Positions 5,095-59,113 of a stretch of DNA of 64,000 nucleotides are shown here, piece after piece. The notes beneath the pieces were generated by a model, which searched no databases, was not told where the DNA came from, and worked only from the letters and a program-made list of their open reading frames with translations. The translations under genes and the position numbers were made by a program. Location: positions 2,784,001-2,848,000 of the forward strand of contig CBDBGH010000003.1 in assembly GCA_965205265.1 (NCBI GenBank), in the 5' to 3' direction. This DNA comes from Alphaproteobacteria bacterium (GTDB taxonomy: Bacteria > Pseudomonadota > Alphaproteobacteria > Bin95). Numbering within the stretch: position 1 is the stretch's first letter; each line of letters begins with the position of its first letter.

Positions 5095-7442
<2,348 letters not shown>

Positions 7443-7624
7443 CTACTCGGAAAAACGTCACCGTTCGCCCAGCCGACCGACCCCGCCAGAAGGTCCAGGA
7501 AAAATTTTTTGAGGCGGCGGCCCGGAACTCCGGTCGGGCTACGCCCTCCCTCCGTTCCGGGCCGCCGCCTTCCCCCGTCTCATCCTGATTGTCGCCAGCG
7601 TCTCAAGCTGATTGTCGCGCCGCA

Positions 7625-8250: not shown

Positions 8251-8265
8251 GCCGTGGCGCCCGCT

Positions 8266-9537
8266 CTAGACCCCATTCGCGTTCTCGTAGAAGAGCCCGT
8301 CATAGACAAAGGCGGACGCCACCGCGTGGCAGTCGTGCTCGCTCGCTCCATTGCGCTGCATCCTGGCATGCCACCCGTCGCGCACTGTGCTCACGATCCG
8401 CTCGAACATCGCCTCCGCCTCGTGTCGATCAAGCAGAAAACGCGCATGACCGCTCAGCAGGTTGGTTCTGTTCGCATAGCGCCCGAACGGACCACATGCC
8501 ATCGCCAGATCGCGGCGCTCTCGGGCTACCGCTGGCAAGGGCGTCAGGTCGAAGGCCGGGCTCAACCTCCATTGACGCCCCCTCGCAAGCATCGCGTGAT
8601 TGCGCGGGTGATCGTCGAGATTGGACACGGCCGCGTTGAAGCACATGCGTGCGAACAACTCCCGCAGATCGTCCACCGGCCGCGCGCTCGCGCGCCGTAT
8701 CTCATCGGCGAGCAGCAGGTAGGACCAGCTTCCACGATCCGCCGGACCGTCTCCGGTGCGCAGCAGCGTCAGCGCGCTCACCATGCGATGCCGCCGGTAG
8801 TCGGCATCGGTCCGGTCGCGGTCGAATCGGCGCACCAGCAGCACGTCGCGCCCACCCACCGTTTCGATCCGGCTCTCGGCCACGTTCAGCCCGCACGCCC
8901 TGGCGAGCGCGAGCATGCCATGCTCGATGCGCGCATGGTTCCAGCGGTCGTTGCGGTGGGAAAACTTTGCAATCCAGAGCCCTTCCTCGGCCTCCACGAC
9001 CGCCTTGGGGCGCGCACCCCCCATCGACGTCCCGAGCAGCAGCAACTCCTCGACCCGCTCGCCGGCGGGACCGGCCCGCTCCCGGTCATCTTGCAAGACC
9101 GCGTCTGCTGCTCGCTGAAGCTGCTCCAGATCCAGGGTCCGGTTGAACAGCTGCCGCGGACCCGGCGGCTCGACGCCGAGACCGAAGCCGAGCGCACCTG
9201 CTCGGTCGTCCGGTCCCTGCATCAGGTAGTCGAACTCGCCGAGCTCGGCGACGCCTGCGTTGCGCTCGATCACCCGCCTCCCCCAGAAGTCGGGCATGGA
9301 GTCCCTGATTGCGCCAAAGAACCCGTCCATGCGGGCCGTCTCCTGGACCCGGTCCGAGAGACGGAGCTCGATCGGGTCGAACTCCACCGCATCGGCCCGC
9401 TCTCGATATGCACGGCCATACACGAATCTGCCAACTCCTCCGTTTCCGTCGTCCGTCCACCGGAAGCGCCCGGCGGTTACGAACGCCGTTGCTCCCGGCA
9501 GCACGATGTAGACGAAGCACTCGCGCTCAGAAGTCAT
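8266..9537 (-). CDS. HipA-family kinase toxin (type II TA)
   Basis: PDFWGRRVI, DRAGALGF, GTSMGGARPKA, WIAKF, LLVRRFDR, NLDDHPRNH, LSPAFDL. Confidence 0.92.
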   Translation of the reverse strand: MTSERECFVYIVLPGATAFVTAGRFRWTDDGNGGVGRFVYGRAYRERADAVEFDPIELRLSDRVQETARMDGFFGAIRDSMPDFWGRRVIERNAGVAELGEFDYLMQGPDDRAGALGFGLGVEPPGPRQLFNRTLDLEQLQRAADAVLQDDRERAGPAGERVEELLLLGTSMGGARPKAVVEAEEGLWIAKFSHRNDRWNHARIEHGMLALARACGLNVAESRIETVGGRDVLLVRRFDRDRTDADYRRHRMVSALTLLRTGDGPADRGSWSYLLLADEIRRASARPVDDLRELFARMCFNAAVSNLDDHPRNHAMLARGRQWRLSPAFDLTPLPAVARERRDLAMACGPFGRYANRTNLLSGHARFLLDRHEAEAMFERIVSTVRDGWHARMQRNGASEHDCHAVASAFVYDGLFYENANGV

Positions 9538-9880
9538 CGCTCAGCACCCGGCGGCCTCCCGCTCGCCTGGGGCTGCGCGCGCGCTCGAGCGTCTTTCCTT
9601 CCTCGTCACGATCCGGATCGGCCACCTCACGCATCTGATCCAGCAGGCCGAGCGCCCACAGCGCGCCCAGATAGACCGCGATGCCGGTCGTCGGCTTGCC
9701 CCTCTCGACGTCAGCTATCACGAACCGGGAGACGCCTATGCGCTCCGCCAGCTCTTCCTGCCGGAGCTTGCGGCGCAGTCGTGCCGTGCGGAGGTTGCGC
9801 CCCATCCGTGCCAGTGCTTCCTCGACCGCTGCCGGGGGCGACTCGGAGATTTTCGTCGGTCTTGGCATGTGTATTTCCAT
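9527..9880 (-). CDS. XRE/HTH antitoxin partner of the HipA toxin
   Basis: LRTARLRRKLRQEELAERIGVSRFVIADVERGKP helix-turn-helix; overlaps the toxin start. Confidence 0.88.
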   Translation of the reverse strand: MEIHMPRPTKISESPPAAVEEALARMGRNLRTARLRRKLRQEELAERIGVSRFVIADVERGKPTTGIAVYLGALWALGLLDQMREVADPDRDEEGKTLERARSPRRAGGRRVLSDDF

Positions 9881-20913: not shown

Positions 20914-21000
20914 GGCGTCCTCCTCCGCCGGGCGCGTGGCGAATCTGTGTCCAGTGTCCTGATCGAGAAGTTTGAGTGCTTATCCGCCGCGTCCTTTCCC

Positions 21001-21459
21001 GTCATGCCCGGACTTGTTCCATTGCTGTCCGGTTCAGCCATTGGGTGAGGCTGAACGGGAGTCCGCCGGGGGGTTCGGGGGCGCGCGGCGTCTGCGATCC
21101 GCCCCTTGCCCGTGAGGCTCGAACGCCCCCCTTCGGCAGGCTCAGGGCAGGCTCTTTCGTCATACCCGGACTTGTTCCGGGTATCTCTCTCAAGCGGCTC
21201 CACCGGGCGGCCGTATGGATGCCCGGAACAAGTCCGGGCATGACGATATGGGGGTCGGGCATGACGATATGGGGGTCGGGCCGCCGAGCGTCGATCCGGG
21301 TCCCGATCCCGCCGAACCCCTCGAAACCCGGTTGAATCCAGGCCATGCGCCCTGCCCGCAAATCCTGAACCGGACAGCAATGGACTTGTTCCGGGCATCC
21401 ACGGGGCCACTCGGCGGGGTGGTTGAGAGAGATGCCCGGAACAAGTTCCGGGCATGACG
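21001..21459. repeat. REP/BIME-like palindrome pair interrupted by a MITE
   Basis: gtcatgcccggacttgttcc|MITE|ggacttgttccgggcatcc...gatgcccggaacaagttccgggcatgac. Confidence 0.85.
21020..21382. mobile_element. MITE copy 1 (363 bp), IS4-like CAT termini
   Basis: Perfect IR cattgctgtccggttcag / ctgaaccggacagcaatg; direct repeat gacttgttc on both sides; no ORF; internal REP pair. Confidence 0.8.
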
Positions 21460-32085: not shown

Positions 32086-32196
32086 GGCAAGGCCCTCCTT
32101 TCGCGAGGGGGATTACAAAGACAGGTTGACGGGGGAGACCAATGACACTTCTCCCGTCATACCTCAATGCTCCCTCCGTCATACCCGGACTTGTTC

Positions 32197-32558
32197 CACT
32201 GCTGTCCGGCTTAGATTTGGTGGACAGAGCGCATGGCTTGGATTCAAGCGGGTTTCGAGGGGTTCGGCGAGATCGGGACTCGGATCGACGCCCGGCGGCC
32301 CGGCCCTGTTCCCGTCATGCCCGCCCCCCATATCGTCATGCCCGGACTTGTTCCGGGCATCCATACGGCCGCCCGGTGGAGCCGCTTGAGAGAGATACCC
32401 GGAACAAGTCCGGGTATGACGAAAGAGTCTGCCCTGAGCCTGTCGAAGGGGGCATTCGGGCCTCACGGGCAAGGGGCGGATCGCAGACGCCGCGCGCCCC
32501 CGAAACCCCAGGCGGACTCCCGTTCAGCCTCGCCCAATGGCTAAACCGGACAGCAATG
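32197..32558. mobile_element. MITE copy 2 (362 bp), inverted relative to copy 1
   Basis: cactgctgtccggcttag / ctaaaccggacagcaatg ends; internal sequence is the near reverse complement of 21020-21382; flanked by REP arms at 32178-32196 and 32559-32577. Confidence 0.8.
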
Positions 32559-32649
32559 GAACACGTCCGGGTATGACGCCGGAGAGAAGGTGCGAAGCCT
32601 CGCAAACCTGTCGTCAACCTGTCCATCCAAACCCTTTCGCGAAAGAGGT

Positions 32650-43195: not shown

Positions 43196-43324
43196 GGTGT
43201 TTTTACGTCTTCGACCCGGTCGCCGCTTGCCCGAATACCGCGAGGCACCCGTTCTCAAACGGTCTCTGACATCGCATATCAAGAAAAATTACCGATATTC
43301 TTGAATTTTGTTCCCTGTATGGGC

Positions 43325-43351
43325 TTGACATCTGGCGGATTGTGGTATGAT
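43325..43351 (+). promoter_or_regulatory. Putative promoter of composite element copy A
   Basis: TTGACA-N15-TATGAT with extended -10 TG; same geometry at 56454-56480 on the minus strand. Confidence 0.55.
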
Positions 43352-43582
43352 GGTCCCCAAGGAAGCGGACTCCGGAGCCGCCTCCCCGGGTGCCGCGCGG
43401 CCGAGCGGCGCCAGTTTCTGAAAACCCGTGAGAAGCCGACGGGAGACGTGCGCCCTGTGCCTCGCGCGCGCAATCAGGCGCGCGAACCGCGCCGCCGCGT
43501 AACGCCCGCCCGCGCCGGCACAGGCGCACGCGCGGGAGACGCGCGAAACAGGGACCCGCTCCCCGTCGGAGGAGGAGAGACG

Positions 43583-44191
43583 ATGACCGCAACCGACCCC
43601 CGCCCCGCACTGGCGGCGATGCTGGCCGAAAAGTTGGCCCCCGCCGCCGCAGCCCTTGCCGAAGCTTATGCCCAGGACATGGGCGCAGCGCCGCCGCCGG
43701 AGGACGACCGCGCCCTTGCCGACCGTCACCGCGCCGGACGCGCCGCGCTCTCCCATCTGCGCCAGCTCCTCAACCTCCTCGACTGGGCCGCCGCCCGCAT
43801 GCCCGAACCGGAGCCGGCAGTCGTCGAAGAGCCGGCGGAGGACCTCGACGACTGGGTTCCGGAGCCGGAGCCCGAGACCGGCTATGACGGCAGCGAGGAC
43901 GAATACCACTATTTCGACGAGGTCTATGTCGGCAGCCAGCAGACGCCGGAGTTCCGGGCCTGGCATGCGGAGCAGGAGCGTCGCTTCGGGCCGCTGGTGC
44001 CGGACGAGGACAGTTACGACGGCAGCGAGGACTACTACAACTTCGGCGAGCGCCAGTATGTGGGCAAGCTGACCACGCCCGCGTTCTACGACTGGCTCGC
44101 CCGCCAGGAACGCCGCGAGGCCGCAGAACTCGCCGCAACGGAGGCCGCAGAAGGAGGCGGGGGTGCGGGGTTCAATGGACGGGGAGAGTAG
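43583..44191 (+). CDS. Hypothetical acidic protein with an internal ~34-aa duplication
   Basis: Strong RBS GGAGGAGGAG; YDGSEDEYHYFDEVYVGSQQTPEFRAWHAEQERR / YDGSEDYYNFGERQYVGKLTTPAFYDWLARQERR. Confidence 0.7.
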   Translation: MTATDPRPALAAMLAEKLAPAAAALAEAYAQDMGAAPPPEDDRALADRHRAGRAALSHLRQLLNLLDWAAARMPEPEPAVVEEPAEDLDDWVPEPEPETGYDGSEDEYHYFDEVYVGSQQTPEFRAWHAEQERRFGPLVPDEDSYDGSEDYYNFGERQYVGKLTTPAFYDWLARQERREAAELAATEAAEGGGGAGFNGRGE

Positions 44192-44214
44192 AAATCGGGC
44201 CGTATCGCCTGCCC

Positions 44215-44565
44215 GTCCCTCCCGCTTGCGGCGGAAATCGTCCTCACCCTGCCTGCCTTGCCCCCTCCCTCGCTTGCTCCTTTCTTCTCCTCCCCCGCTT
44301 GCGGGAGGCCGGGTGGGGCCCTCCCGGCGAGCCTGCCCCGGACCCCGATCCGGGGGGCACCTCCCGGGCTTCGCCCGCCGCTTGCGCTGGCGTGCAAGCG
44401 GCCCCTCACCCAACCCTCTCCCGGGGGGAGAGGGCTTTCCTGCGGAGGCGGCGTTCCATCTTGCCTGCCCCAATCCCTCCTTCGCTTGCGAGGGAAGGGT
44501 TGGGGCGGGAGGCCGTCTTTCCGCACGACGGCCTCTGCCGGGCTTCGCCCGCAGGCGGGGAGGGA
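44215..44565. repeat. Cluster of REP-like palindromes
   Basis: cccgcttgcggg, cccctcacccaaccctctcccggggggagaggg and ccttcgcttgcgagggaagggttgggg motifs. Confidence 0.7.
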
Positions 44566-44747
44566 AGTCAGCGCACGGATAGCTTCATGCCTGAAACGGC
44601 TACAGCATATGAACCTGGCGCATGCAAAACATGACATTTCATGACGCCGGCCGGAGAGGGCCATGACCGAACATGACATCCCATGACATCGGCCGGGAGG
44701 CGTCCCGGCAGCCGCTCTCCAGCGCCTTCGCCGGAACCCGGTCCGGT

Positions 44748-45830
44748 TCAGCCGCGCAGCGCCGGGAGGACCTCGGTCTCGATCAGCTGCTTTGCGACCG
44801 GCCCGGCCCCGCCTCCGGCGCTGCGCCAATTGCCGTTGACGACGATCTTGTCGAGCCCGAGCGCCCGCAGCCGGACGAGCCGTTCCAGCACCCGCTCCGG
44901 CGGCCCGACGGCGGCGTATTCCCGGATGAACGCCGGCGTCAGCACCGCCGCCTGCGCCGAATCGCCCTCCGTGTGCCTGTGCATGTCATAAGCCTGGCGC
45001 ATCGCCTCCATCACCCGGCGGTTCTCTTCGGAGAGCGGGCCGCTCGCCCGGCCGTGCATGACGGCGAAGCGCGCGAAGACGGTCAGGTTGCCGCGCACCA
45101 TGTCCTGGGCGGCTTCCATGTCGGGGTGGCAGCCGCAGGACACATAGGCGCCGAAACGCAGGCCTTCCGGGTCGAGGCCGGCCGCCTCGCGCGCCGCCCG
45201 GGCGGCGGCGATGCCCCAGGCGAGGCGCTCCGGCGAGGCGCCGAGCGCGAACATCACCCGGTCCGCCCGGCGCGCGGCGATGGCGATGACCTTCGGCCCC
45301 GTCGCCGCGACCTCGACAAGCGCCTTGCCGTCCCGCGCCGCAGCCCCGGCCATCCACCGGATGCGGCTCGCCGCCGGCGTCTCGGCGAGCGCCAGCGTCT
45401 CCACCGGCGGCGCGGATGCGGCCGGAATATCGACCAGCTCCTCGAACGCCACCTCGCCGCCCGACAGATAGGCCTGGAGGTGGGTGAGATAGCGCTCGAA
45501 CTGCCCGAGCCGCGCCGGGGCGCGGCCGAGATGGGCGAGCGCGGAATCGCCCCGGCCGATGCCGAGCGTCATCCGCCCCCGCGACACGCTGTTGACCGTG
45601 GCCGCCGCCGAGGCCAGCACCGCGGCCGTCCGCGTGACCGGATTGGAGACGCCCGTGCCGAGCCCGAGGCGCCGGGTAACGGTGGCCGCCATGGCCAGCG
45701 CGACGAAGGAATCGGCCGCGAGGTTCTGGGAATCGACGACATTGACGCCGTCCCAGCCGCTTTCCTCCAGCGCCCGCGCCTCGTGCAGAATGCCGCGCGG
45801 CGCGGGCATGCAATTGGTCCAGATTTCCAT
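44748..45830 (-). CDS. LLM-class flavin-dependent oxidoreductase
   Basis: DSQNL..DSFVAL, LGTGVSNPVTR, GRMTLGIGRGDSA, AATGPK. Confidence 0.88.
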   Translation of the reverse strand: MEIWTNCMPAPRGILHEARALEESGWDGVNVVDSQNLAADSFVALAMAATVTRRLGLGTGVSNPVTRTAAVLASAAATVNSVSRGRMTLGIGRGDSALAHLGRAPARLGQFERYLTHLQAYLSGGEVAFEELVDIPAASAPPVETLALAETPAASRIRWMAGAAARDGKALVEVAATGPKVIAIAARRADRVMFALGASPERLAWGIAAARAAREAAGLDPEGLRFGAYVSCGCHPDMEAAQDMVRGNLTVFARFAVMHGRASGPLSEENRRVMEAMRQAYDMHRHTEGDSAQAAVLTPAFIREYAAVGPPERVLERLVRLRALGLDKIVVNGNWRSAGGGAGPVAKQLIETEVLPALRG

Positions 45831-45985
45831 GAGCCCCCGATTCCCTCCCTGCGGGCAAGACGCGCGGGCCGGATTATTCCCGCTTCCGCGCCGCCCGCAA
45901 CCGCCGGCCGTTCCCTTGCGGCGGCCGGTCGTGGCAGTCTCCGCGCCCGGGCCCCTCCCCACCGGCGCCATGCAGGAGTTGGACC

Positions 45986-46855
45986 ATGAACCGACTGTTC
46001 ACCGAGGCCGAATCCGCGGAGATCGTCATCGAGCGGCTGGCCGGCTGCGACGATCCGCGGTTCCGCGCGGTCATGGAGGCCGCCATCCGGCACCTGCACG
46101 CCTTCGTGAAGGAGGTGGAGCCCACCGTCGGGGAATGGGCGCAGGCCATCCGGTTCCTGACCGCCACCGGGCAGATGTGCGACGACCGCCGCCAGGAATG
46201 GATTCTGGCCTCCGACGTGCTCGGCGTTTCCATGCTGGTGGAGACGCTGAACAACCGCTCCGAGGGCGGCGCCACGGAGGCGACGGTGCTCGGCCCCTTC
46301 CATGTCGAGGGCGCGCCGCAGCTCGAGCCCGGCAGCAATATCTGCCGGGACGGCAAGGGCGTGCCCTGCCTCGTCTCCGGGCGCGTCACCGATGTCGAAG
46401 GCAGGCCGCTGGCCGGCGCGGTCCTCGACATCTGGCAGACCGATGCGGACGGCTTCTACGACGTGCAGCAGCCGGAACTGCAGCCGGAGATGAACCTGCG
46501 CGGGCGGTTCCTCACGGGCGCGGACGGGCGCTATTCCTTCCGCACGGTGAGGCCCGTGTCATATCCGGTGCCGACCGACGGCCCGGTCGGGGACATATTG
46601 AGGCGCATGGGCCGGCACGCCTGGCGCCCGGCGCATATCCACTTTATCGCGAGCAAGCCCGGCTACCGGCGGCTCGTGACCCACATCTTCGCCCATGACG
46701 ACCCCTATATCGATTCGGACGCGGTATTCGGGGTCAAGGAATCGCTGCTGGTCGAGTTCCGCGAACATGACGACGGCGAGCAGGCGCGCGAGCTCGGCGT
46801 GGAGGCGCCCTTCTGCACCGCGGAGTTCGACATCCGGCTCGCCCGGGAAGGCTGA
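45986..46855 (+). CDS. Intradiol ring-cleavage dioxygenase (hydroxyquinol/catechol 1,2-dioxygenase-like)
   Basis: TVLGPFH, DIWQTDADGFYDVQ, YPVPTDGPVG, WRPAHIHF, SDAVFGVK. Confidence 0.92.
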   Translation: MNRLFTEAESAEIVIERLAGCDDPRFRAVMEAAIRHLHAFVKEVEPTVGEWAQAIRFLTATGQMCDDRRQEWILASDVLGVSMLVETLNNRSEGGATEATVLGPFHVEGAPQLEPGSNICRDGKGVPCLVSGRVTDVEGRPLAGAVLDIWQTDADGFYDVQQPELQPEMNLRGRFLTGADGRYSFRTVRPVSYPVPTDGPVGDILRRMGRHAWRPAHIHFIASKPGYRRLVTHIFAHDDPYIDSDAVFGVKESLLVEFREHDDGEQARELGVEAPFCTAEFDIRLAREG

Positions 46856-46867
46856 GGCCGGGCGGGG

Positions 46868-47761
46868 CTACGGCGCGCGGACGAGCGCCGCGGCCTGCGC
46901 GGCGGAGAAGGCTTCCGCGCGGCCGCAGAACTGGCAGACCATCTCCAGCGAGCCGTCCTCCCGGCGCATGTCCTCCATCTCGCCGGCGGAAAGCGCGCGG
47001 AGCACGGTTTCCATCCGCGCCCGGCCGCCGCAGCGGCAGCCGTCGCGAAGCGGGCGCTGGGGATCGACGCGCAGCTCGTCGCGGTGGAAGAGGCGCAGCA
47101 GCAGCGCGTCGCCCGGCAGCGCGGGGTCGAGCAGTTCGTCCGGACCGACGGTGAGCATGTAGTGCCCGAGCCGGGTCCAGAGATCGCCGGTCTCCTCGGG
47201 CGGGTCCGGCTCGTCCGGGAGGCGCTGGAGCATCAGCGCCGCCGCGCGCCAGGCCCCGCCCCGCCGGCCGCAGGCGGCCGCAAGGCAGGTGTCGATCTGC
47301 TCCGACTGGCGGAAATAATGCAGCACGGACTGCGCGAGGCCGCCCCTGGCCAGTTCGACCACGCCCTGGTAGCGCTCGCCGCCGTCCGCCGGATCGAATG
47401 TGAACGCCAGATAGCCGGCGCCGAACGGGCCGCCGCCGGCCTCTGCCGGCCCGGCCTCGCCGTCGAAGCCGGCAAAGCCGCGCATGAGCCCCGCCGCGTC
47501 TATATCCGCCACCAGCCGGCGGATCGCGCCGTCGCCTTCGACCTGAAGCGTGAATATGCCGCCCGCCTTGAGCGACTGCGCGAGCGCGGCCGCGACCGCC
47601 AGCGATTCGCCCAGCACCGCCGCCGCTGCATCCGGATAGGCGTGCCGGTCGAGGATGCGCGCGACCTCCGGCCCGAGGCGCACGAGGCGGCCGCGCACCC
47701 TTGTGCCGGCCAGCCGGAAGGGTCTCACATAATCGTCGCGAAGCGCCGCGCGAGCCTCCAT
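46868..47761 (-). CDS. hslO: Hsp33 redox chaperone
   Basis: RGRLVRL, YQGVVEL, YFRQSEQ, CRC...CQFC zinc motif. Confidence 0.93.
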   Translation of the reverse strand: MEARAALRDDYVRPFRLAGTRVRGRLVRLGPEVARILDRHAYPDAAAAVLGESLAVAAALAQSLKAGGIFTLQVEGDGAIRRLVADIDAAGLMRGFAGFDGEAGPAEAGGGPFGAGYLAFTFDPADGGERYQGVVELARGGLAQSVLHYFRQSEQIDTCLAAACGRRGGAWRAAALMLQRLPDEPDPPEETGDLWTRLGHYMLTVGPDELLDPALPGDALLLRLFHRDELRVDPQRPLRDGCRCGGRARMETVLRALSAGEMEDMRREDGSLEMVCQFCGRAEAFSAAQAAALVRAP

Positions 47762-47770
47762 GCGCCGGCG

Positions 47771-48673
47771 CTACCGCCCGAGGCACCAGGCGAGAATGCC
47801 CTTCTGCGCATGCAGCCGGTTTTCCGCCTCGTCCCAGACGGCCGATTGCGGCCCGTCGATCACGGCGCCGGAAACCTCCTCGCCGCGGTGCGCCGGCAGG
47901 CAATGCAGGAAAATGGCGTCCGGCCGCGCCCCGGCCATCAGCCGCTCATCGACGCGGTACGGCGCCAGCAGGTTGTGGCGGCTGCTCTCGCTGCCGTCAT
48001 TCATCGACACCCAGACGTCGGTGACGACCGCATGGGCGCCGGATACAGCCGCCGCCGGGTCGTCGTGGAGGCTCACCCGCGCGCCGTTCGCTTCCGCCCA
48101 GGCGAGCGCGTCGGCCGGCGGACGGCGCTCCGGCGGGCAGCCGACGGCGAGGTCGAAATCGAAGCGCGCCGCCGCGTGGATCCAGCTCGTGGCGACATTA
48201 TTGCCGTCGCCGCTCCAGGCGATGCGCTTGCCGGCAATGGCGCCGCGCCGCTCTTCGAAGGTCATCACGTCCGCCATGAGCTGGCAGGGATGCGAGCGGT
48301 CGGTCAGCCCGTTGATGACCGGCACTTCGGCATTGGCGGCGAGCTCGGTCAGCTTGTCGTGGCTGTCGGTGCGGATCATGATCGCATCGACATAGCGCGA
48401 CAGCACCCGTGCCGTATCGGCCCAGCTCTCGCCGCGCTTGACCTGGGTTTCCTGGCCGGAAAGCACGATGACATGGCCGCCGAGCTGGCGCATGGCGACC
48501 TCGAAGGACACGCGGGTGCGCGTCGAGGGCTGCTCGAAGATCATCGCGAGCGTCTTGCCCTCGAGCGGCCGGTCCGGGTCCCCCGCCTTGAAGGCGAGGG
48601 CCCGGTCGAGGATGCGGCGGAGCGCGGCCCCGTCGTAATCCTTGAGGTCGAGGAAGTGGCGCGGCGCGCTCAT
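47771..48673 (-). CDS. argF: Ornithine carbamoyltransferase
   Basis: [32 protein letters not shown]. Confidence 0.96.
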
Positions 48674-48679
48674 ACGCTC

Positions 48680-49861
48680 TCACGCAGCGGCGGCGGCGAA
48701 TTCCCGGCAAGCGCCTTCGACCATGCCGACCGCCTCGCCGATATGCGAGTCCTCGACGACGAGCGGCGGCAGCAGCCGCACGACATTCTCGCCCGCCGGC
48801 ACCGCGAGCAGGCCCTGGCGGCGCAGTTCGCCCACAAATTCGCCGTTGGCGGGGCCGGTGCGCAGCCCGACCATCATGCCCGTGCCGCGCACTTCCAGGA
48901 TCGTGTCCGGATAGCGCGCCGCGAGCGCCGCGAGGCGCCCGTGCAGATCCCTGGCACGCGCCTGCACGTTGTCGAGGAAACCCTCGGCCAGCAGCGCGTC
49001 GAGCACGGCGTTGACGACGGCCGTCGCCAGCGGGTTGCCGCCGAATGTGGAGCCATGCGTGCCGGCGACCATGCCCGACGCCGCCTCTTCCGTCGCGAGG
49101 CAGGCGCCGACCGGGAACCCGCCGCCAAGGCCCTTGGCGAGCGCCATCACGTCCGGGCGGATGCCCGACCATTCATAGGCGAACAGCTTGCCGGTGCGGC
49201 CCATGCCGCACTGCACCTCGTCGAGGAACATCAGGAGGCCGAACTCGTCGCAGATCTCGCGCACGCCCTTGAGGTAGTCGGCGGACATCGGGCGGATGCC
49301 GCCCTCGCCCTGCACCGGCTCGACCAGAATGGCGCAGGTCTCGCCGGTGACGGCCGCGCGCAGCTCGTTGAGATTGCCGAAGGCCACCTGATCGAAGCCC
49401 TCGGTAACCGGGCCGAAGCCCTTGTAGAGCTTCTCCTGGCCGGATGCGGCGATGGAGGCGAGCGAGCGGCCGTGGAAGCAGCCCTCGACCGTGATGATGC
49501 GGAAGCGCTCCGGCTCGCCCTTGTCCGCATAGTGCTTGCGGACGAGCTTGATGCCGCATTCGATGGCCTCGAGGCCGGAATTGCAGAAGAAGACCGTGTC
49601 CGCGAAGCTGTTCTCGGTCAGTCGTCGCCCGGCTCGCTCCTGATTGGGAATATTGTACAGGTTCGAGGTATGCCAGAGTCGGCCGGCCTGATCCTGGAGC
49701 GCGGCGACAAGGCCGGGATGGGCGTGGCCGAGAGCGGTCACGGCGATCCCGCCGCCGAAGTCCAGGAACCGCCGCCCGTCGGACGCGAAGAGGTAGGGGC
49801 CCTCGCCTTTCTCGAAAGCGATGTCCCGATCCCCGTAGGTCGGCATCAGGGGGGCGATCAC
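48680..49861 (-). CDS. argD: Acetylornithine aminotransferase
   Basis: GIAVTALGH.HP, EPVQGEGG, DEVQCGMGRTG, AKGLGGGFP, HGSTFGGNP; GTG start after AAGGAG. Confidence 0.93.
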   Translation of the reverse strand: MIAPLMPTYGDRDIAFEKGEGPYLFASDGRRFLDFGGGIAVTALGHAHPGLVAALQDQAGRLWHTSNLYNIPNQERAGRRLTENSFADTVFFCNSGLEAIECGIKLVRKHYADKGEPERFRIITVEGCFHGRSLASIAASGQEKLYKGFGPVTEGFDQVAFGNLNELRAAVTGETCAILVEPVQGEGGIRPMSADYLKGVREICDEFGLLMFLDEVQCGMGRTGKLFAYEWSGIRPDVMALAKGLGGGFPVGACLATEEAASGMVAGTHGSTFGGNPLATAVVNAVLDALLAEGFLDNVQARARDLHGRLAALAARYPDTILEVRGTGMMVGLRTGPANGEFVGELRRQGLLAVPAGENVVRLLPPLVVEDSHIGEAVGMVEGACREFAAAAA

Positions 49862-49971
49862 GATCGGGTCTCCTTCGGATGGTGCTTCAAACGACATCCC
49901 CGCCGCAGGCCGGCGGGGAAGCGCGCAATAGTGGTTGCCGGGCGGCTTATGTCAATGCCCGGCTTGAGGCC

Positions 49972-50697
49972 TCAGTCCTCGCGCACGCCGGCGGCGAGAT
50001 AGCCGCCGTCCACCGGCAGCACGACGCCGCTGACATAGGCCGCCGCCTCGCCGGCGAGGAACACCGCCGCATCCGCCATCTCCTCGGGGAAGCCGTAGCG
50101 CGCTGCCGGGATCATGCGATGGTAGTTGGCGCGGGCGGCCGGCGTGTGGTGGGCGCGGGTCAGCGCGGTATCGACCGGCCCCGGCGCAATCGCGTTCACC
50201 GTGACGCCGAAGGGCGCCAGTTCCATGGCCGCCTGTTGCGTGAGCGCGACAACGCCGGCCTTGGAGATGCCGTAGGCCATCCGTTCGGCCCCGACGCGCA
50301 CGCCGGAGATGGAGGCGATATTCACGATGCGCCCGTAGCCGGCTTCGACCATGGGGCGCGCCGCTTCCTGCAGACAATAGAAGCTGCCGTAGAGGTTGAT
50401 CCGGAGCACGCGGTCGAAATCTTCCGGCGTTACGTCGAAGATGGCATGGCGGACGCTGATGCCCGCGACATTGGCCAGAATGTCGATGCGGCCGTGGCGC
50501 GCGACCGTCTCCGCGACCAGCCGCCGGGCGTCCTCCGGCTTCGAGACGTCGATGGCGAGGCCGCCCGGCCCGAGCCCGTCCGCCTTCAGGTCGCTCTCCA
50601 CCACTTCCGCCCCTTCGGCGCGAAAGGCTGCGGCAATCGCCCCGCCGATCCCGCCGCCGGCCCCCGTCACCGCCGCTACCCGCCCTTGCAACCGCAT
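49972..50697 (-). CDS. SDR-family oxidoreductase
   Basis: TGAGGGIG, YGISK, NAIAPG, VDGG. Confidence 0.92.
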   Translation of the reverse strand: MRLQGRVAAVTGAGGGIGGAIAAAFRAEGAEVVESDLKADGLGPGGLAIDVSKPEDARRLVAETVARHGRIDILANVAGISVRHAIFDVTPEDFDRVLRINLYGSFYCLQEAARPMVEAGYGRIVNIASISGVRVGAERMAYGISKAGVVALTQQAAMELAPFGVTVNAIAPGPVDTALTRAHHTPAARANYHRMIPAARYGFPEEMADAAVFLAGEAAAYVSGVVLPVDGGYLAAGVRED

Positions 50698-50866
50698 GGC
50701 TTTGTTTCCTTTCCGCGAAAGTCCAAACCCCGACAGCCCGGTCTCACGCCGGGAATCCGGACGAGGCTAGCACATGCCTGCGGCGCACCGGCATCGATAG
50801 CCTGCAAACGCGCGCGCGACGGGGTAGTATGCGCCGCACCGATATATCCGGCCGGAGGCAGGGCGT

Positions 50867-51823
50867 TTGCCCATTACGCTGCGCCAGTTGCGCTATTTTC
50901 AGGCTCTCGTCGCGCACGGCTCCTTCAGCCGCGCCGCGGAGAGCGTATTCGTGTCCCAGCCGGCGCTTTCGCTCCAGATTCGCGAGCTTGAGGCGACGCT
51001 CGGCGGGCCGCTGGTGGAGCGCGAGAGCCGCGGCGTTCATCTCACCCGCCTCGGCCGGGAGGCGCATGAGCAGACGCTCCAGATTCTGGACGAGACCAAT
51101 TTCCTCGAGCTCATGGGGAAACAGTTCGATGACGGCCGGGCAACCGTCGCTGTCGGCATTATTTCCACCCTGTCGCCCTATCTGCTGCCGGGCCTTCTCG
51201 AGCGCTTGCAGGAAACGACGCCCCGCATCGAACCCAGCGTCGTCGAGGCGACCGGCAACGAGTTGATATCGGGCCTCCAGTCGGGCCGCCTGGATGCTGC
51301 GATCCTGTCCCTTCCGGTCGGCGTGATCGAGTTCCCGGAGCGGGAATTGTTCGAAGACCGGTTCCTGGTCGCGGGCCTCGCCGGCTTGCTGGACGCCGTC
51401 CGCTCGCATTCCGATTCCCCCCGGCCCGAGGATCTGGCGCGGGCCGATATCGGGCCGCTGCTTACCCTTGCGGACGGGCATTGCCTCGCCGACCAGGTTC
51501 TGGGGGCCTGCTCGATGTGGCGCCAGCAGGACGTCCACCGCGGCGCCGGCTCGCTGGCCACGCTTTCGCGTCTGGTCGCGGGCGGCGAAGGTATTGCGCT
51601 CATTCCGGAGACCGCCCTGTCCTGCGAAAGCGGGATGTCTCCCGGCCTTCGCTTCCTGCGCTTCGCCGCGCCGGAGCCGCTGCGCCGGATCGGCCTGATC
51701 CATCGCTTGGCTGCCCACGGCCAGCGCTGGATCGACCCCCTGGCCGAAGCGGTGGCGGATGCCGGCAGGGACCTGACCGGACAGGCGCGCCGGCTGGTGG
51801 CCGAGGCTCCAACGGCCGCCTGA
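50867..51823 (+). CDS. oxyR: OxyR-like LysR regulator
   Basis: LysR HTH; GHCLADQVLGAC keeps both redox Cys (C199/C208 spacing); SLATL. Confidence 0.75.
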   Translation: MPITLRQLRYFQALVAHGSFSRAAESVFVSQPALSLQIRELEATLGGPLVERESRGVHLTRLGREAHEQTLQILDETNFLELMGKQFDDGRATVAVGIISTLSPYLLPGLLERLQETTPRIEPSVVEATGNELISGLQSGRLDAAILSLPVGVIEFPERELFEDRFLVAGLAGLLDAVRSHSDSPRPEDLARADIGPLLTLADGHCLADQVLGACSMWRQQDVHRGAGSLATLSRLVAGGEGIALIPETALSCESGMSPGLRFLRFAAPEPLRRIGLIHRLAAHGQRWIDPLAEAVADAGRDLTGQARRLVAEAPTAA

Positions 51824-51854
51824 GCCGGGCCGCCGCGGGTCCTTACCGCCCGCA

Positions 51855-53558
51855 CTATCCGCCTGCCGCCTTCGCCATGAAGTCGAAATCGCAGCCCCGG
51901 TTCGCCTGGGTCACGGTCTCCAGATAGAGCTTGAGATAGCCGCGTTCGGAACCGGCATGGGCCGGCGGGCTCCAGCCGGCGCGCCGCCGGGCGAGCTCCA
52001 CCTCGTCCACCAGCAGGTCGAGGCGCCGCCCCGGCGTGTCGAGGCGGATGCGGTCGCCCGTCCGGACGAGCGCGAGCGGCCCGCCGACCGCCGCCTCCGG
52101 GCAGCAATGCAGCACGATCGTGCCGAAGGCCGTGCCCGACATGCGCGCGTCGGAGATCCGCACCATGTCGCGGACGCCCTGTGCCGCGAGCTTTTTCGGG
52201 ATGGGCATCGAGCCCGCCTCCGGCATGCCCGGCGCGCCCTTCGGTCCGGCATTGCGGAGCACCAGCACATCGTCCGCCGCCACATCGAGGCCGGGGTCGT
52301 CGATCCGCGCCGCGAGGTCCTCCAGCCCGTCGAACACCACCGCCCGGCCCTCATGCGCGAGCAGGTCCGGGCTCGCCGCCGACTGCTTGATGACCGCCGT
52401 GTCCGGCGCGAGCGTGCCGCGCAGCACGGCGACGCCCCCTTCCGGCCAGATCGGGTCCGCCAGCGGCCGCACGACCGCCTGGCCCGGATGCTCGTCGGCC
52501 GCCCCGTCGATCTCCTCGCCGAGCGTGCGCCCCGTCACCGTCAGCGCGTCGAGGTTCAGCAACGCCCTCAGCTCCTTTAGGATGGGCGCCGCGCCGCCCG
52601 CGCGGTGCAGGTCCTCCATGTAGTGTTGGCCAGAGGGCTTGAGATCCACCAGCACGGGCGTCTCCCGGCCCATCGCATCGATGGCGTCGAGGTCCACCTC
52701 GATCCCGAGCCGGCCGGCGACCGCCGCCATGTGGATCAGGCCGTTGGTCGAGCCGCCGACGGCAAGCAGCATGCGAAAGGCGTTCTCGAAGGCGGCCGGC
52801 GTCATGATGCGGTCGGGAGTCAGCCCCTCCCCGGCCAGCGCCACGGCACGGGCCCCGGTGGCCTCCGCATGGCGCAGGCGGTCGGCATGGACCGCCGGGA
52901 TGGCCGCGCCGCCCGGCAGCATCATGCCGACGGTCTCCGTCATCAGCGCCATCGTGGAGGCGGTGCCCATCACCATGCAGGTGCCGGCCGTCGGCATCAG
53001 CCGTCCGCCCGCGAGCTCGATTTCGGCCTCGTCCATATCGCCGGCCCGATAGAGTCCCCAGAGCCGCCGGCAGTCCGTGCAGGCGCCGAGCCTCTCGCCC
53101 CGGAAATGGCCGGTCATCATCGGTCCCGTCACCTCCATGATGGCGGGAATGCCCGCGCTCGCCGCGCCCATCAGCAGCGCCGGCACCGTCTTGTCGCAGC
53201 CGCCGATCAGCACCACGGCGTCCATCGGCTGGGCGCGGACCATCTCTTCTGTGTCCATCGCCATGAGGTTGCGCAGGAACATCGAGGTCGGGTGCGAAAA
53301 GCTCTCGTGGATCGAAATCGTCGGGAAGCGGATCGGCAGCCCGCCCGCATGCATGACGCCGCGCTCGATGGCGGCGATCAGGTCCGGCACGGTGCGGTGG
53401 CAGCCATTGAAGCCGCTGAACGTGTCGGTGATGGCGACGATCGGGCGTTCGAGCGCCTCGTCGGAATAGCCCATCGCCTTGATGAACGCCTTGCGCAGGA
53501 AGAAGGAGAGCCCGGCGTCGCCGTATTGGGCGAGGCCGGAACGGATGCCATCGGTCAC
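51855..53558 (-). CDS. IlvD/Edd-family dehydratase (sugar-acid type)
   Basis: GGCDKT, GTCMVMGTAS, GGSTN, GAPGMPE, SDARMSGT; GTG start 53558 (the track's 928-aa ORF is read-through across the IS). Confidence 0.9.
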   Translation of the reverse strand: MTDGIRSGLAQYGDAGLSFFLRKAFIKAMGYSDEALERPIVAITDTFSGFNGCHRTVPDLIAAIERGVMHAGGLPIRFPTISIHESFSHPTSMFLRNLMAMDTEEMVRAQPMDAVVLIGGCDKTVPALLMGAASAGIPAIMEVTGPMMTGHFRGERLGACTDCRRLWGLYRAGDMDEAEIELAGGRLMPTAGTCMVMGTASTMALMTETVGMMLPGGAAIPAVHADRLRHAEATGARAVALAGEGLTPDRIMTPAAFENAFRMLLAVGGSTNGLIHMAAVAGRLGIEVDLDAIDAMGRETPVLVDLKPSGQHYMEDLHRAGGAAPILKELRALLNLDALTVTGRTLGEEIDGAADEHPGQAVVRPLADPIWPEGGVAVLRGTLAPDTAVIKQSAASPDLLAHEGRAVVFDGLEDLAARIDDPGLDVAADDVLVLRNAGPKGAPGMPEAGSMPIPKKLAAQGVRDMVRISDARMSGTAFGTIVLHCCPEAAVGGPLALVRTGDRIRLDTPGRRLDLLVDEVELARRRAGWSPPAHAGSERGYLKLYLETVTQANRGCDFDFMAKAAGG

Positions 53559-53656
53559 GGGTGGAGCGCCTTTCGATCGTTCGGGGCGGAAGGGTTCGAG
53601 TTTGCGGCCCCGGGAGCGGAGGGCCAAGCCCGATGTGTCATGGAGTGTCATGTTTT
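53487..53656. repeat. 170-bp target duplication, left copy
   Basis: cgccttgcgcagg...gtgtcatgtttt repeated at 55573-55742. Confidence 0.92.
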
Positions 53657-55572
53657 CCTGACTTCGACGGTTGGGCTGACTTCTGACCGATCTCGCGTCT
53701 GGAGTTTTCAGTAAAGCCAATGAGTTGGCAGTTGCGGTGCGGTCAAGCTGCGTTGTAGTGCCTAGTAAATCTTTGAGACTGTCAATGCCTCCGCCACGCG
53801 CTACACTCCCCCCATGTTCGTGCGCATCAAGACCTCCCCCAACAGCCCGCGACGCTCGGTCCAGATCGTCGAGGCCGTGCGCGACGGCGGCAAGGTCCGA
53901 CAGCGCATCGTCCGCCATGTCGGCGTGGCCATGGACGAGGACGAGCTCGAGCGCCTGAGGCAGCTCGGCGAGTACGTCAAGGCGAAGCTGGAGGACGAGC
54001 GTCAGCCGGCATTGTTTGCGCCCGAGAAGATCGCTGAGCAGGCGATCCGTGTCGGCCGCCGGGGGGACGGCAAGGAGGAACTCCCGGTCGACCTCAAGCA
54101 GCTTGAAGAGGAGCAGCGCCTGATCACAGGCATCCACGAGGTCTATGGCGAGATCTACCGGCTGCTGGGCCTCGACGCGCTGCTGCCGCGCTCGCGCTAC
54201 CGGGCCTCCCATGACGCGCTGTTCCATGTGGTGATGGCGCGGGTAGCCAACCCCGACAGCAAGCGGGGCAGCGTGCGCCGGCTCGAGGAGGACTTCGGCG
54301 TGAGTCTTCCGCTCGAGAAGGTCTACCGGATGATGGATCAGCTCGACGCGACGGTGATCGAGCGACTGCGCACGCGCGTCGGCGAGGCGAGCCGGTCGCT
54401 GCTGCCGGAGCCGGTCGCGATCCTCTTCTTCGATTGCACCACGCTCTACTTCGAGACGGCCGCCGAGGACGAGCTTCGCCAGCACGGCTTCAGCAAGGAC
54501 GGCAAACACAAGGACTCGCAGGTTCTGCTGGCGCTGATGGTGACGCGCGAAGGGCTGCCGATCAGCTACGAGGTCTTCCCCGGCGCCACCTACGAGGGAC
54601 ACAGCATGGTCCCGGTCCTGCAGGACATGCAGCGCCGCCACCAGGTGGAGCGCACGGTATGCGTGGCCGACCGGGGCATGCTGAGCGCCGACAACCTCGA
54701 CGCCATGGACGCCATCGGCGGCGAGTATGTCGTCGGCGCGCGGCTGCGCAAGCTGCCGCTCGCGCTGCTGGGGCAGGTTCTCGACCCCGGGACCTATGCC
54801 CCGCTGGAGGGCTCACAGGACCGCCGGGTCGGCGAGTGGGAGTACAAGGGCCGTCGCCTGATCGTCGTCTTCTGCCCCCAGCGCGCACGCAAGGACGCGC
54901 ACGAGCGCCGCCATCAGGTGGAACGCCTGCTCGACAGGCTGGCCCGCAGCGACAATCCCAGGGAACTGCTCTCCAATCACGGGGCGAAGCGCTTCATCGC
55001 CGTCGAGGGCGACGCACGGCTCACGGTGAACCCGGAGAAGATCGCCGAGGCCGCACGATGGGACGGGCTCACCGGCGTCATCACCAATCTGCGCGACGCG
55101 CGCGTCACCGAAGTGATGGCTCACTACCAGGGGCTCTGGCAGGTCGAGGAGAGCTTCCGGATCACCAAACACGACCTGAAGATACGTCCCATCTGGCACT
55201 GGAACCCGGACCGGATCCGCGCTCACATCGCCATCGCCTTCCTGGCCTTCGCCTGCGTTCGACACCTTGCGTACCGCGTCGCCATCCAGAAGCGGCGGAT
55301 GTCCCCGGAGGTCATCCGCTCCGCCCTCGTCCACCGCCAGTGCTCCCTGCTGCGCTGTCGGCAATCGGGCAACCGCTACGTCATCCCCTCGAAGCCGACA
55401 CCGGCGGCGGAGCAGATTTACGCAACCATGGGGCTGCCCCTGACGATCACCCCGTATCAACTCGCCTGACCGTCGACGAAGCACGGCTCGAAGAAATGCC
55501 GGATGTAGTGCCTAGCCGAAATGAGAACCAGGCAATATCAACTACTTATGCGAATCAACCGTCGAAGTCAGG
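53657..55572 (+). mobile_element. IS1634-family insertion sequence
   Basis: 17-bp perfect IR cctgacttcgacggttg / caaccgtcgaagtcagg. Confidence 0.92.
53814..55469 (+). CDS. IS1634-family transposase
   Basis: FFDCTTLYFE, GFSKDGK, VADRGM, YQGLWQVEESFRITK.DL.IRPIWH..RIRAHI. Confidence 0.93.
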   Translation: MFVRIKTSPNSPRRSVQIVEAVRDGGKVRQRIVRHVGVAMDEDELERLRQLGEYVKAKLEDERQPALFAPEKIAEQAIRVGRRGDGKEELPVDLKQLEEEQRLITGIHEVYGEIYRLLGLDALLPRSRYRASHDALFHVVMARVANPDSKRGSVRRLEEDFGVSLPLEKVYRMMDQLDATVIERLRTRVGEASRSLLPEPVAILFFDCTTLYFETAAEDELRQHGFSKDGKHKDSQVLLALMVTREGLPISYEVFPGATYEGHSMVPVLQDMQRRHQVERTVCVADRGMLSADNLDAMDAIGGEYVVGARLRKLPLALLGQVLDPGTYAPLEGSQDRRVGEWEYKGRRLIVVFCPQRARKDAHERRHQVERLLDRLARSDNPRELLSNHGAKRFIAVEGDARLTVNPEKIAEAARWDGLTGVITNLRDARVTEVMAHYQGLWQVEESFRITKHDLKIRPIWHWNPDRIRAHIAIAFLAFACVRHLAYRVAIQKRRMSPEVIRSALVHRQCSLLRCRQSGNRYVIPSKPTPAAEQIYATMGLPLTITPYQLA

Positions 55573-55742
55573 CGCCTTGCGCAGGAAGAAGGAGAGCCCG
55601 GCGTCGCCGTATTGGGCGAGGCCGGAACGGATGCCATCGGTCACGGGTGGAGCGCCTTTCGATCGTTCGGGGCGGAAGGGTTCGAGTTTGCGGCCCCGGG
55701 AGCGGAGGGCCAAGCCCGATGTGTCATGGAGTGTCATGTTTT
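55573..55742. repeat. 170-bp target duplication, right copy (5' stub of the dehydratase gene)
   Basis: Matches 53487-53656 by eye. Confidence 0.92.
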
Positions 55743-56480
55743 GTCATGGGGACCGGCGGGACACTGTGCGATATGTCATGCGATGTCATGATCTGCATGC
55801 GTGCAGAGCATATGCTGTGGCCCGTCCGGGCATGGGCGCGACTATTCCATTCGGTTCCCAGGGCAATCGCTTTTGAAGATTTGCGAGCAGGGCGCATGGG
55901 ATGGACCGAGGCCCGGCGTCCCCGCCTCCTTCCCATCCCTCTTCCCGTCATGCCCGGACTCGCTCCGGGCATCTCCCGCCGCTGCTTCCGCCGAACGGCC
56001 GCATGGATACCCGGAACGAGTCCGGGTATGACGGAGGGGGCGTTCGGACATGATGGAGGAGCCTGCCCTGAGCTTGTCGAAGGGGGCGTTCGGGCATGAC
56101 GGGGGTGTTCACGCATAGCAAATCCGAAAGCGATAGCCCTGATTCGGTTCCGGTGACTGTTTGTCTTCGGCATAGGTTGTTCCTTTCACTCCTGTTTCGT
56201 TCCGTTCGTCCCGCCGTTGGCCGGCCGGCGGCGGGACCCTAATTCGCGCGTATCCCGAGCGCGGGCGCCCGCGCCCGTGGGCGGGCGTATCGCGCCGGCG
56301 CGGTTCGCGCGCCTGATTGCCCGCATGTGCTTGCGCGCGCGAGCCAGGCGCAGGGCGCACCTTGCCTGTTGGCCGAATCGGGGGCTTTTTTCGCGCCGGC
56401 GCCGACGCGGAAGAGGAAGCGGCCTCCGGATGCTGCTTCCTTCCTTTCGTCCCATTATAGCACATTTTTCTAAAAAACAA
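55717..56480 (-). repeat. Composite repeated element, copy B
   Basis: Promoter-like TTGTTT-N15-TATAAT (56454-56480); leader shares 25 identical nt with copy A; REP cargo 55945-56100; GTCATG array 55723-55790. Confidence 0.7.
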
Positions 56481-56607
56481 GATCATAACTGGAATTTATT
56501 CGATATTCATGAACAAAGGTCATATTCGCTCTCGCGGCCGGGTGCGGCTTCCGCCAGGAGTCGGGGAGGCGTAGGCTCGTTCCCGGCGCGATTCGGAGAG
56601 GAAACCG

Positions 56608-58981: not shown

Positions 58982-59003
58982 TACTAGCGTTCCGACCCCT
59001 TCT

Positions 59004-59113
59004 CGTCATGCCCGGACTTGTTCCGGGCATCCATGCGGCCGCTCGGCGGAGGCGGTTGAGAGAGATGCCCGGAACAAGTCCGGGCATGACGGAGGGAGCG
59101 TTCGGGCATGACG
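59004..59113. repeat. REP/BIME-like palindrome pair (uninterrupted)
   Basis: cgtcatgcccggacttgttccgggcatc...gatgcccggaacaagtccgggcatgacg. Confidence 0.85.

Follow-up and report, generated by a model that had tools for sequence, protein, structure and literature searches.

What is an element that carries a promoter-like site, a long leader and a terminal cluster of CATGAC hexamers, and that occurs twice within a short distance of an alphaproteobacterial genome? The question is raised by a 64-kb stretch of contig CBDBGH010000003.1 (hereafter the window), in which unit A (43325-44690, + strand) and unit B (56480-55717, - strand) show these parts in identical order. The initial annotation had interpreted the pair as a mobile or expression cassette with variable cargo, or alternatively as a structured noncoding RNA family with a protein-binding terminus. 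Our analysis gives good support to the view that both units are members of a lineage-restricted, dispersed repeat cassette family with a unit length of roughly 0.95-1.4 kb.

Within the window, both copies were confirmed with their common part order, which is found at no third place. A pairwise alignment of A and B brings the promoter-like sites, the leaders and the end blocks together, while the intervening DNA does not align. The annotated promoter pattern with an extended -10 TG was recovered as TTG-N15-TGnTATRATGG, which matches the 64 kb only twice, at 43325-43353 (+) and 56480-56452 (-); none of 100 shuffled sequences contained a match. The predicted leader of 230-280 nt with conserved blocks, ending in a ribosome-binding site and ATG, was also borne out. 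The two leaders measure ∼231 and ∼280 nt, their longest ungapped match covers 104 nt with 78% identity, and an identical 25-mer is found at 43470-43494 (+) and 56296-56320 (-) only, with a chance expectation of 0. An nhmmer search with the leader-core profile described below identified A and B as the sole matches in the window. The end blocks contain the annotated motif ACAGCATATG, which in the window is restricted to 44602 (+) and 55809 (-), and five CATGAC hexamers each, with start-to-start spacings of 10, 22, 10 and 10 nt in A and, read 5′ to 3′, 10, 32, 10 and 10 nt in B. The combination CATGAC-N4-CATGAC, allowing at most one mismatch, occurs eight times in the window compared with 0.22 expected. 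Seven of these matches have no mismatch; arrays A and B contribute three each, and the seventh lies in a duplicate of B's array made by an insertion sequence (IS). The eighth, at position 26970, carries one mismatch.

The extent of the family was determined with the 202-aa open reading frame (ORF) of unit A. A search of a 5.8-billion protein set returned 151 relatives at E ≤ 0.001, several per contig and none with a Pfam domain. Scanning species-representative genomes with an alignment of 31 relatives yielded 50 loci with ∼10-kb flanks in 10 assemblies (L numbers below), 18 of them in assembly CBDBIS01; the genome of the window itself is not represented among these loci. Except for one record labelled Spirochaetales, the assemblies are metagenome-assembled genomes of uncultured “Alphaproteobacteria bacterium”. 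A leader-core profile built from 34 leaders was searched in the 50 loci (741 kb) and the window, and 53 matches were obtained. A leader lies directly upstream of every family ORF for which sequence is available there, and each leader ends with AAGGAG followed by ATG. For 39 of the 52 strong matches, the leader is followed on the same strand by an array, defined as at least three CATGAC hexamers within 45 nt. Eight of the 13 leaders without an array run out of sequence at a contig end within 650 nt. Among the remaining five, L008 has a mutated hexamer, two units of L019 have two-hexamer arrays, L023 retains a 20-nt match to the end block and L015 also shows an end-block match. Conversely, 49 of 53 arrays are located downstream of a same-strand leader, three lie at the start of a contig, so that their leader is missing, and a single one (L002, 13394) is an orphan. 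The co-occurrence of leader and end block, on which the existence of a composite unit had been made to depend, is therefore strict.

Because leader and array occur together, we regard them as the two ends of one unit and the enclosed ORF as the family's own gene. The idea of unrelated, variable cargo was consequently abandoned: the 202-aa ORF is a conserved orphan gene of the family that is either present or absent. An alignment of 12 copies from CBDBIS01 shows similarity from an AT-rich stretch ∼90 nt ahead of the -10 region to ∼10-40 nt past the last hexamer, corresponding to a unit length of ∼0.95 kb with a sharp 3′ boundary. The leader had no match among 72,556 plasmids (blastn), and a full-text literature search retrieved no description of the array sequence or of CATGAC direct repeats. 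Likewise, neither the ends of a described IS or miniature inverted-repeat transposable element (MITE) nor an Rfam family matched the units. The cassette fits no described element.

The gene of unit A (43583-44191, +) encodes an acidic protein with an isoelectric point (pI) of 4.3 and belongs to this orphan family. Its stop codon at 44189-44191 is early and precedes the array. In many other members, including all full-length CBDBIS01 copies, the ORF runs directly into the array with nothing in between. The stop codon is the TGA within a CATGAC hexamer in 29 of 34 ORFs, and 24 of these 29 end with HD(K/I)xx in one fixed frame, despite linkers that vary in length and sequence. In unit A, ∼360 nt of GC-rich palindromic DNA resembling repetitive extragenic palindromic (REP) sequences occupies the region between ORF and terminal block (44200-44560); in L020, which carries the unit A ortholog, a non-coding stretch shorter by ∼330 nt is found. 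The distance from ATG to terminal block is accordingly ∼1007 nt in A versus ∼680 nt in L020. REP-like DNA has cut the ORF of copy A off from its array. The annotated REP DNA downstream of each ORF is indeed present in both A and B, but as a separator of ORF and array it is absent from many members of the family. Truncated ORFs account for 7 of the 34. In L020 (8278-8400), a single-base difference in a run of C close to the start of the ORF shifts the frame, while leader and array are intact; this could reflect either a pseudogene or an assembly error.

A predicted structure of the protein (AlphaFold, mean predicted local distance difference test score 75.3) consists of an N-terminal helical hairpin (helices 7-35 and 42-71), which an acidic linker connects to two β-hairpin-plus-helix repeats. 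A relationship of these modules to an AP2-like or integrase arm-binding fold was considered but not supported: Pfam searched at E values up to 10 gave no hit, a profile search against sequences of solved structures (PDB) retrieved nothing relevant with the cassette protein, and Foldseek against PDB returned no match at E ≤ 0.001 with either the whole model or one module. The best score in the ESM Atlas was 0.85, with unnamed clusters only, and among the PHROGs only phrog_31793, a family without assigned function, matched the ORF (E = 3.1e-5). A profile search of 1.84 billion representative proteins retrieved 103 clusters at E ≤ 0.001, mostly short fragments by their listed length. The protein family therefore appears to be narrow, with no distant relative identified among these representatives. 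A homodimer prediction for the N-terminal 80 residues (score 0.02) allows no call either way.

In unit A, the terminal block (44586-44690, +) reads CATGCC..ACAGCATATG..CGCATGCA, followed by CATGAC hexamers starting at 44630, 44640, 44662, 44672 and 44682. In unit B (55717-55835, -), the same elements are found, with ACAGCATATG at 55818-55809, CGCATGCA and hexamers at 55790-55785, 55780-55775, 55748-55743, 55738-55733 and 55728-55723. This architecture is conserved between assemblies, irrespective of whether an ORF is present: CATGCC..CAG.ATATG..CGCATGCA, two hexamers, a spacer and three hexamers. The 178 hexamers of 47 distinct arrays define CATGACA as the conserved word, in which A occupies position +6 in 89% of cases, and the following three bases are G-poor (5-7% G). 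The 131 start-to-start gaps are distributed over a few discrete classes: 10 nt (108 times), 11 nt (twice), 19-22 nt (13 times), 32-33 nt (seven times) and 43 nt (once). Gaps of 12-18, 23-31 or 34-42 nt do not occur. The longer gaps follow a step of ∼10.7 nt, not multiples of the 10-nt unit, and a single 11-nt indel, located in the spacer, distinguishes array A from its ortholog in L020. Since such quantised spacing is a signature of sites on one face of the DNA helix, we read the array as a probable DNA-level docking platform for protein, in agreement with the protein-binding terminus suggested by the initial annotation. No array-binding adaptor or initiator domain was found in the cassette ORF or in neighbouring genes. 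With three hexamers 10 nt apart, each reading frame contains a TGA and also an ATG, so that the array would stop translation in any frame.

At the opposite end, the AT-rich stretch and promoter-like site cover 43290-43351 (+) in unit A, with TTGACA at 43325-43330 and TGgTATGAT, its -10 hexamer TATGAT at 43346-43351. In unit B, they cover 56454-56540 (-), with TTGTTT at 56480-56475 and TGcTATAAT, its -10 hexamer TATAAT at 56459-56454. The hexamers are good and accompanied by TG. Their spacer, however, measures 15 nt in A, in B and across the family, outside the 16-18 nt of σ70-type promoters, which explains why a standard scan with that spacing finds nothing. Among 12 copies of one assembly, both hexamers are conserved while the spacer sequence varies, and this conservation suggests that TTG-N15-TGnTATRAT may function as a promoter.

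The leader of unit A (43352-43582, +) contains a 5′ hairpin at 43360-43387 and a core at 43430-43569, which includes the invariant 25-mer, and ends with GGAGGAGGAG and ATG. In unit B, the leader (56174-56453, -) has its core at 56374-56221, its 25-mer at 56320-56296 and a 3′ extension typical of the ORF-less form described below. Between assemblies, median identity is 0.82 for the leader core, 0.83 for the N-terminal domain of the ORF and 0.76 for the remaining ORF. Indels among near-identical leaders are not multiples of three and argue against a coding function. Evidence for RNA structure was obtained only for the 5′ end. The 10-bp hairpin recurs in single-sequence ensembles, five of its pairs show changes in both partners, and the share of paired cells is 91.8%, compared with at most 58.9% when the partners are slid. 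Overall folding energy is unexceptional relative to 200 shuffles (z = -1.63 with 14 of 200 folding as well for A; z = -0.30 with 79 of 200 for B), and RNAalifold predicted 19 pairs with one compensatory change. In the leader alignment, 38 columns are invariant and 54 nearly so, and most of these lie in the core; as it hardly varies, the core says nothing about structure. Three further candidates were rejected. A closing helix between the leader's 5′ and 3′ ends looks compensatory when A is compared with B but is in another register or absent in other subfamilies; the long-range helix GUGCGCC..GGCGCAC and a local core hairpin are inconsistent across copies; and a blind search for covarying columns was dominated by the division into two subfamilies. 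Rfam gave no match in the whole window at gathering score, and permissive scans of both units gave only microRNA-type noise over REP palindromes. The proposal of a structured noncoding RNA is therefore not supported beyond the 5′ hairpin.

Unit B represents a second type of cassette, with relatives in L016, L019 (two in tandem), L028, L034 and L046. These ORF-less units consist of a promoter-like site, a leader with a characteristic 3′ extension, a start codon, a mini-ORF and the array. Copy B is thus a conserved ORF-less form of the cassette in which every cis part is kept. Its ATG (56173-56171) opens a short, non-conserved frame (56104-56173, -) that enters REP DNA and has no homolog of the family ORF. 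A palindromic REP/MITE-family copy, one of four in the window, lies within the unit at 55938-56033. In CBDBIS01, the mini-ORF of ORF-less units has 12-15 codons and no similarity to the short frame of unit B. Directly upstream of the ORF-less unit of L016, an ORF with a group II intron maturase domain (GIIM) is located at 19306-19839.

In six out of six cases (window, L016, L019, L028, L034 and L046), a full unit lies 8.26-9.18 kb from the ORF-less unit, in the direction in which the array of the latter points. The pairs are convergent in the window (8,950 nt after removal of an IS and its duplication), L016 (8,260), L046 (8,536), L034 (8,727) and L019 (9,178), and in tandem in L028 (∼8.9 kb). 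A comparison of the bracketed segments identified no common genes, only compositional noise. Leader matches at 0-8.2 kb from a full unit are absent from 668 kb of flank. A partner was present for 4 of the 26 full units having at least 9.6 kb of downstream flank and for 1 of the 32 having at least 9.3 kb upstream. For uniform positions, we estimate the chance of five loci falling into one 1.1-kb band, ∼10% of the scanned flank, as ∼1e-5, for a band picked post hoc. Distances beyond ∼9.5 kb are invisible due to the 10-kb flank limit, which hides the upper tail of the spacing.

The genomic distribution of the cassette shows how it behaves within its hosts. Fifteen loci are dispersed along one 3.99-Mb contig. 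Units are intergenic and show no orientation bias relative to neighbouring genes (downstream, 18 on the same and 13 on the opposite strand; upstream, 19 and 10). With these 18 co-oriented versus 13 opposite downstream neighbours, the array was also rejected as a promoter or operator of the downstream gene. Eleven of the 50 loci end within a unit at a contig end, and the truncated units of L046, L048 and L050 keep both ends. In a tree based on leader and N-terminal coding DNA, hardly any differences separate the CBDBIS01 copies from each other. At the orthologous positions L006 and L012, whose flanks are 79-88% identical, each unit clusters with the copies of its own genome, indicating concerted evolution or turnover. 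The search for empty-site alleles revealed one filled/empty site: the same two genes are separated by 59 nt in L017 (6202-6261) but by 1,348 nt in L024 (9338-10686), which comprise a unit and REP/MITE copies, and in a third assembly the site is also filled (via L023 and L031). A comparison of the window with L020 shows 92% identity for 6.3 kb to the right of unit A and 83% within the unit, and unrelated sequence left of 43306. The expectation of a mobile or expression cassette was therefore confirmed with respect to a composite multi-copy unit; mobility would follow only from copy number, dispersal and the one filled/empty site, without a transposition hallmark.

We favour, with about even confidence, the explanation that the cassette is a lineage-specific dispersed repeat whose array serves as a DNA-level protein platform at the 3′ boundary and whose copies are kept uniform by recombination. 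Its descriptive part is well supported, whereas what the array does and how the cassette spreads are inferred. According to this proposal, a full unit would be a self-contained expression module composed of the AT-rich stretch, -35 and -10 hexamers with a 15-nt spacer, a ∼230-nt leader and the gene for the orphan acidic protein. One or two CATGACA clusters at 10-bp spacing would form the 3′ boundary, within which the ORF normally stops. The array could act as a platform for cooperative protein binding on one helical face. Possible roles are to mark the 3′ end of a strongly transcribed unit, to insulate it, or to provide a site for recombination or packaging. The family would persist as a semi-selfish repeat, spread and kept uniform by recombination, gene conversion or a trans-acting enzyme, and would not be a vector for variable cargo.

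Several observations weigh against this explanation. The 5′ boundary of the 12 aligned CBDBIS01 units is fuzzy. As the initial annotation had already remarked for the window, transposition hallmarks are missing: the cassette ORF contains no transposase or recombinase domain (Pfam, NCBIfam and PADLOC, 0 matches each), a search for terminal inverted repeats on three units gave inconsistent GC-rich matches only, and no target duplication was seen at the sole filled/empty pair (L024/L017), a site that is 11% diverged and contains REPs. Units occupy the same site in assemblies whose flanks are 12-21% divergent (L006/L012 and L037/L041), which indicates long residence, not recent hopping. The family protein is acidic, with pI values of 4.3-5.0 in five of six tested members, 7.15 in the sixth and ∼4.4 for the modules, and is therefore a poor candidate for the array-binding factor. 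Finally, the median ratio of nonsynonymous to synonymous substitution rates (dN/dS) is 0.60 (272 pairs of 24 full-length ORFs), so the ORF is under some constraint and could serve the host. This value indicates a real but weakly constrained gene.

The last points lead to the strongest competitor, an ordinary host gene family, which we consider rather unlikely but tenable. It would encode a useful acidic protein, for example a mimic of protein or DNA, or a factor in stress response or defence, with the leader as a regulatory 5′ untranslated region and the array as an operator or roadblock; copies would arise by duplication and gene conversion, and ORF-less units by decay. The coding constraint, the frame conserved into the array in 24 of 34 ORFs, the conserved positions between assemblies and the missing mobility hallmarks all agree with it. 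On the other hand, ORF-less units of different assemblies have both a 3′ extension of the leader and a mini-ORF start in common, which is not expected from random decay. The units are also found in unrelated intergenic contexts with flanks that are not duplicated, leader and array stay intact where the ORF is truncated (7 of 34) or frameshifted (L020), and one site exists in filled and empty form. The ORF-less units also figure in an RNA-centred interpretation, in which they would be small RNA genes, the leader a structured regulatory RNA and CAUGACA a site for an oligomeric RNA-binding protein or termination factor. They have kept the leader and the array along with the promoter-like site, conservation of the leader core matches that of the best-conserved ORF part, the 5′ hairpin shows changes on both sides of five pairs, and the hexamer spacers are G-poor. 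Against these stand the unexceptional folding energies, the single compensatory pair found by RNAalifold, a column covariation confounded by the two subfamilies, the lack of an Rfam match and gaps of 21-22, 32-33 and 43 nt, which match the helical repeat of DNA and not multiples of 10 nt. We regard this interpretation as improbable.

The fixed spacing between ORF-less and full units suggests yet another function, with the two as packaging-initiation or loop-anchor sites bracketing a segment of ∼8.3-9.2 kb that equals one headful or loop. The constant direction and distance in all six cases with unrelated genes in between, the empty interval of 0-8.2 kb in the flanks and the seven hexanucleotide repeats described for the phage P1 pac site (PMC11260489) are in line with this idea. 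But terminase, capsid and other phage-like genes are absent from the window, the genes between the units have housekeeping functions (argD, argF, hslO), and most full units with sufficient flank lack a partner, which makes it very unlikely. In a broader formulation, the cassette would be a new class of chromosomal element, either with phased CATGACA arrays as directional (pac-like or loop-anchoring) sites bracketing such segments of otherwise ordinary chromosome, on which it would thereby impose a measured and repeated architecture, or as a mobile cassette without known transposition hallmarks; this we judge to be about as doubtful as the RNA-centred interpretation. Hardly any weight remains for a classical IS or MITE, or for an operator of a Pho-box-type response regulator. 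Multiple copies in full and deleted forms would fit the former, and the reverse strand of the hexamer, TGTCAT, the core of the Pho-box half-site, the latter. Both are already contradicted: transposase and inverted repeats are missing, no target duplication was seen at the one filled/empty site, and the array has a period of 10 instead of 11, consists of 3-6 repeats 3′ of the gene and is not accompanied by a -10 region at the expected distance.

A comparison of the dispersed repeat cassette with known systems shows partial similarity to several of them. Like pairs of autonomous and non-autonomous IS or MITE elements, it exists as dispersed copies, some of them full units and others internally deleted with both ends kept; its copies fragment short-read assemblies, and synteny breaks at the unit boundary. 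Unlike these, it has no transposase or recombinase signature and no terminal inverted repeats, its one filled/empty site shows no target duplication, and its 5′ boundary is not sharp. With REP sequences and their composite forms, bacterial interspersed mosaic elements (BIMEs) and REPINs, it shares a strictly intergenic, lineage-specific location, often beside true REPs, and CATGCCCGGAC resembles a REP arm; with ∼1 kb, a promoter-like site, a leader and a protein gene, it differs clearly from palindromic units of 20-150 nt. Plasmid centromeres and iterons, such as those of the R1 parC type, contain helically phased short direct repeats. The cassette resembles them in its two clusters at ∼10-bp spacing with a spacer that keeps the helical phase, but there is no adjacent adaptor or partition gene, and its repeats lie 3′ of an ORF, over the stop codon and at many chromosomal sites. 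In the pac site of phage P1, hexamers are split into two clusters and are subject to methylation control. The cassette likewise has hexamer clusters with a 4-bp palindrome (here CATG) flanking a spacer, a fixed direction of the array and a fixed distance of ∼8.8 kb to the next unit, whereas a terminase or phage context is not present in the window. Pho boxes and related sites of the OmpR family consist of tandem paired 7-bp half-sites with an 11-bp period beside the -10 region. Direct repeats with TGTCAT on the reverse strand are common to both, but 108 of the 131 gaps in the arrays have the period 10 and two the period 11, and the 3-6 repeats of an array are not paired and always lie 3′ of the cassette ORF. 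Finally, marine Beggiatoaceae have been described to contain abundant intergenic TAACTGA heptamer direct repeats in stand-alone sets (PMC4679880). These are comparable as lineage-specific intergenic arrays of short direct repeats but, as stand-alone sets, unlike the CATGAC array, which is a fixed 3′ part of a unit with promoter-like site, leader and ORF.

If our explanation is correct, an uncultured alphaproteobacterial lineage carries a dispersed repeat that has been missed entirely by annotation, with its ORF listed as hypothetical and leader and array unannotated. Such a repeat would break assemblies, mark rearrangement points and place strong, outward-reading promoter-like sites into intergenic DNA. 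The array itself would provide a clean DNA motif with seven conserved bases, a 10-bp period and phase-preserving spacers, and the ∼8.8-kb distance between ORF-less and full units is a quantitative regularity without a current explanation.

The window contains further repetitive and mobile DNA. The 3′ end of unit B has been separated from its neighbour by an IS1634-family element at ∼53657-55572, whose transposase is encoded at 53814-55469 (NF033559, 341 bits; cutoff, 100). Identical direct repeats of 170 nt border the element on either side (53487-53656 = 55573-55742), and its insertion parted the array from a gene of the dihydroxy-acid/arabinonate dehydratase family (51858-53561, -). The copy at 53487-53656 (-), which duplicates the last 170 nt of the end of unit B with 100% identity, is made up of two hexamers, a stretch of ∼80 nt and the initial 25 codons (75 nt) of the dehydratase gene. 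As a target duplication from the IS insertion, it marks the original junction between unit B and the gene. Long and variable duplications of 8-514 bp are reported for IS1549 and IS1634 (PMC2266710). Members of a palindromic REP/MITE-like family, with arms that start with CGTCATGCCCGGAC and end with its reverse complement, are located at 21000-21400, 32180-32580, 55938-56033 and 58996-59091. The start of the cassette's terminal block, CATGCCCGGAC, resembles the arm start of this family. CATGAC occurs 62 times in the window versus 27 expected, and the family's termini, which contain CATGAC, explain part of this excess.

At some distance from the cassettes, the region 4461-9880 harbours IS66-family transposase fragments (4461-4793 and 7583-8161) interrupted by an IS21-type istB-like gene (5098-5934), which is adjoined by an unassigned ORF of 499 aa (5934-7430). 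A HipA-like kinase with a helix-turn-helix partner (8269-9880) adjoins the IS66 fragments. Two paralogous ORFs at 1062-2255 contain a direct repeat (1170-1332 and 1761-1923, 82% identity), and the second has a CVNH domain. A 735-aa fibronectin-type-III protein is encoded at 17728-19932, with a 54-nt tandem repeat at 18159-18266.

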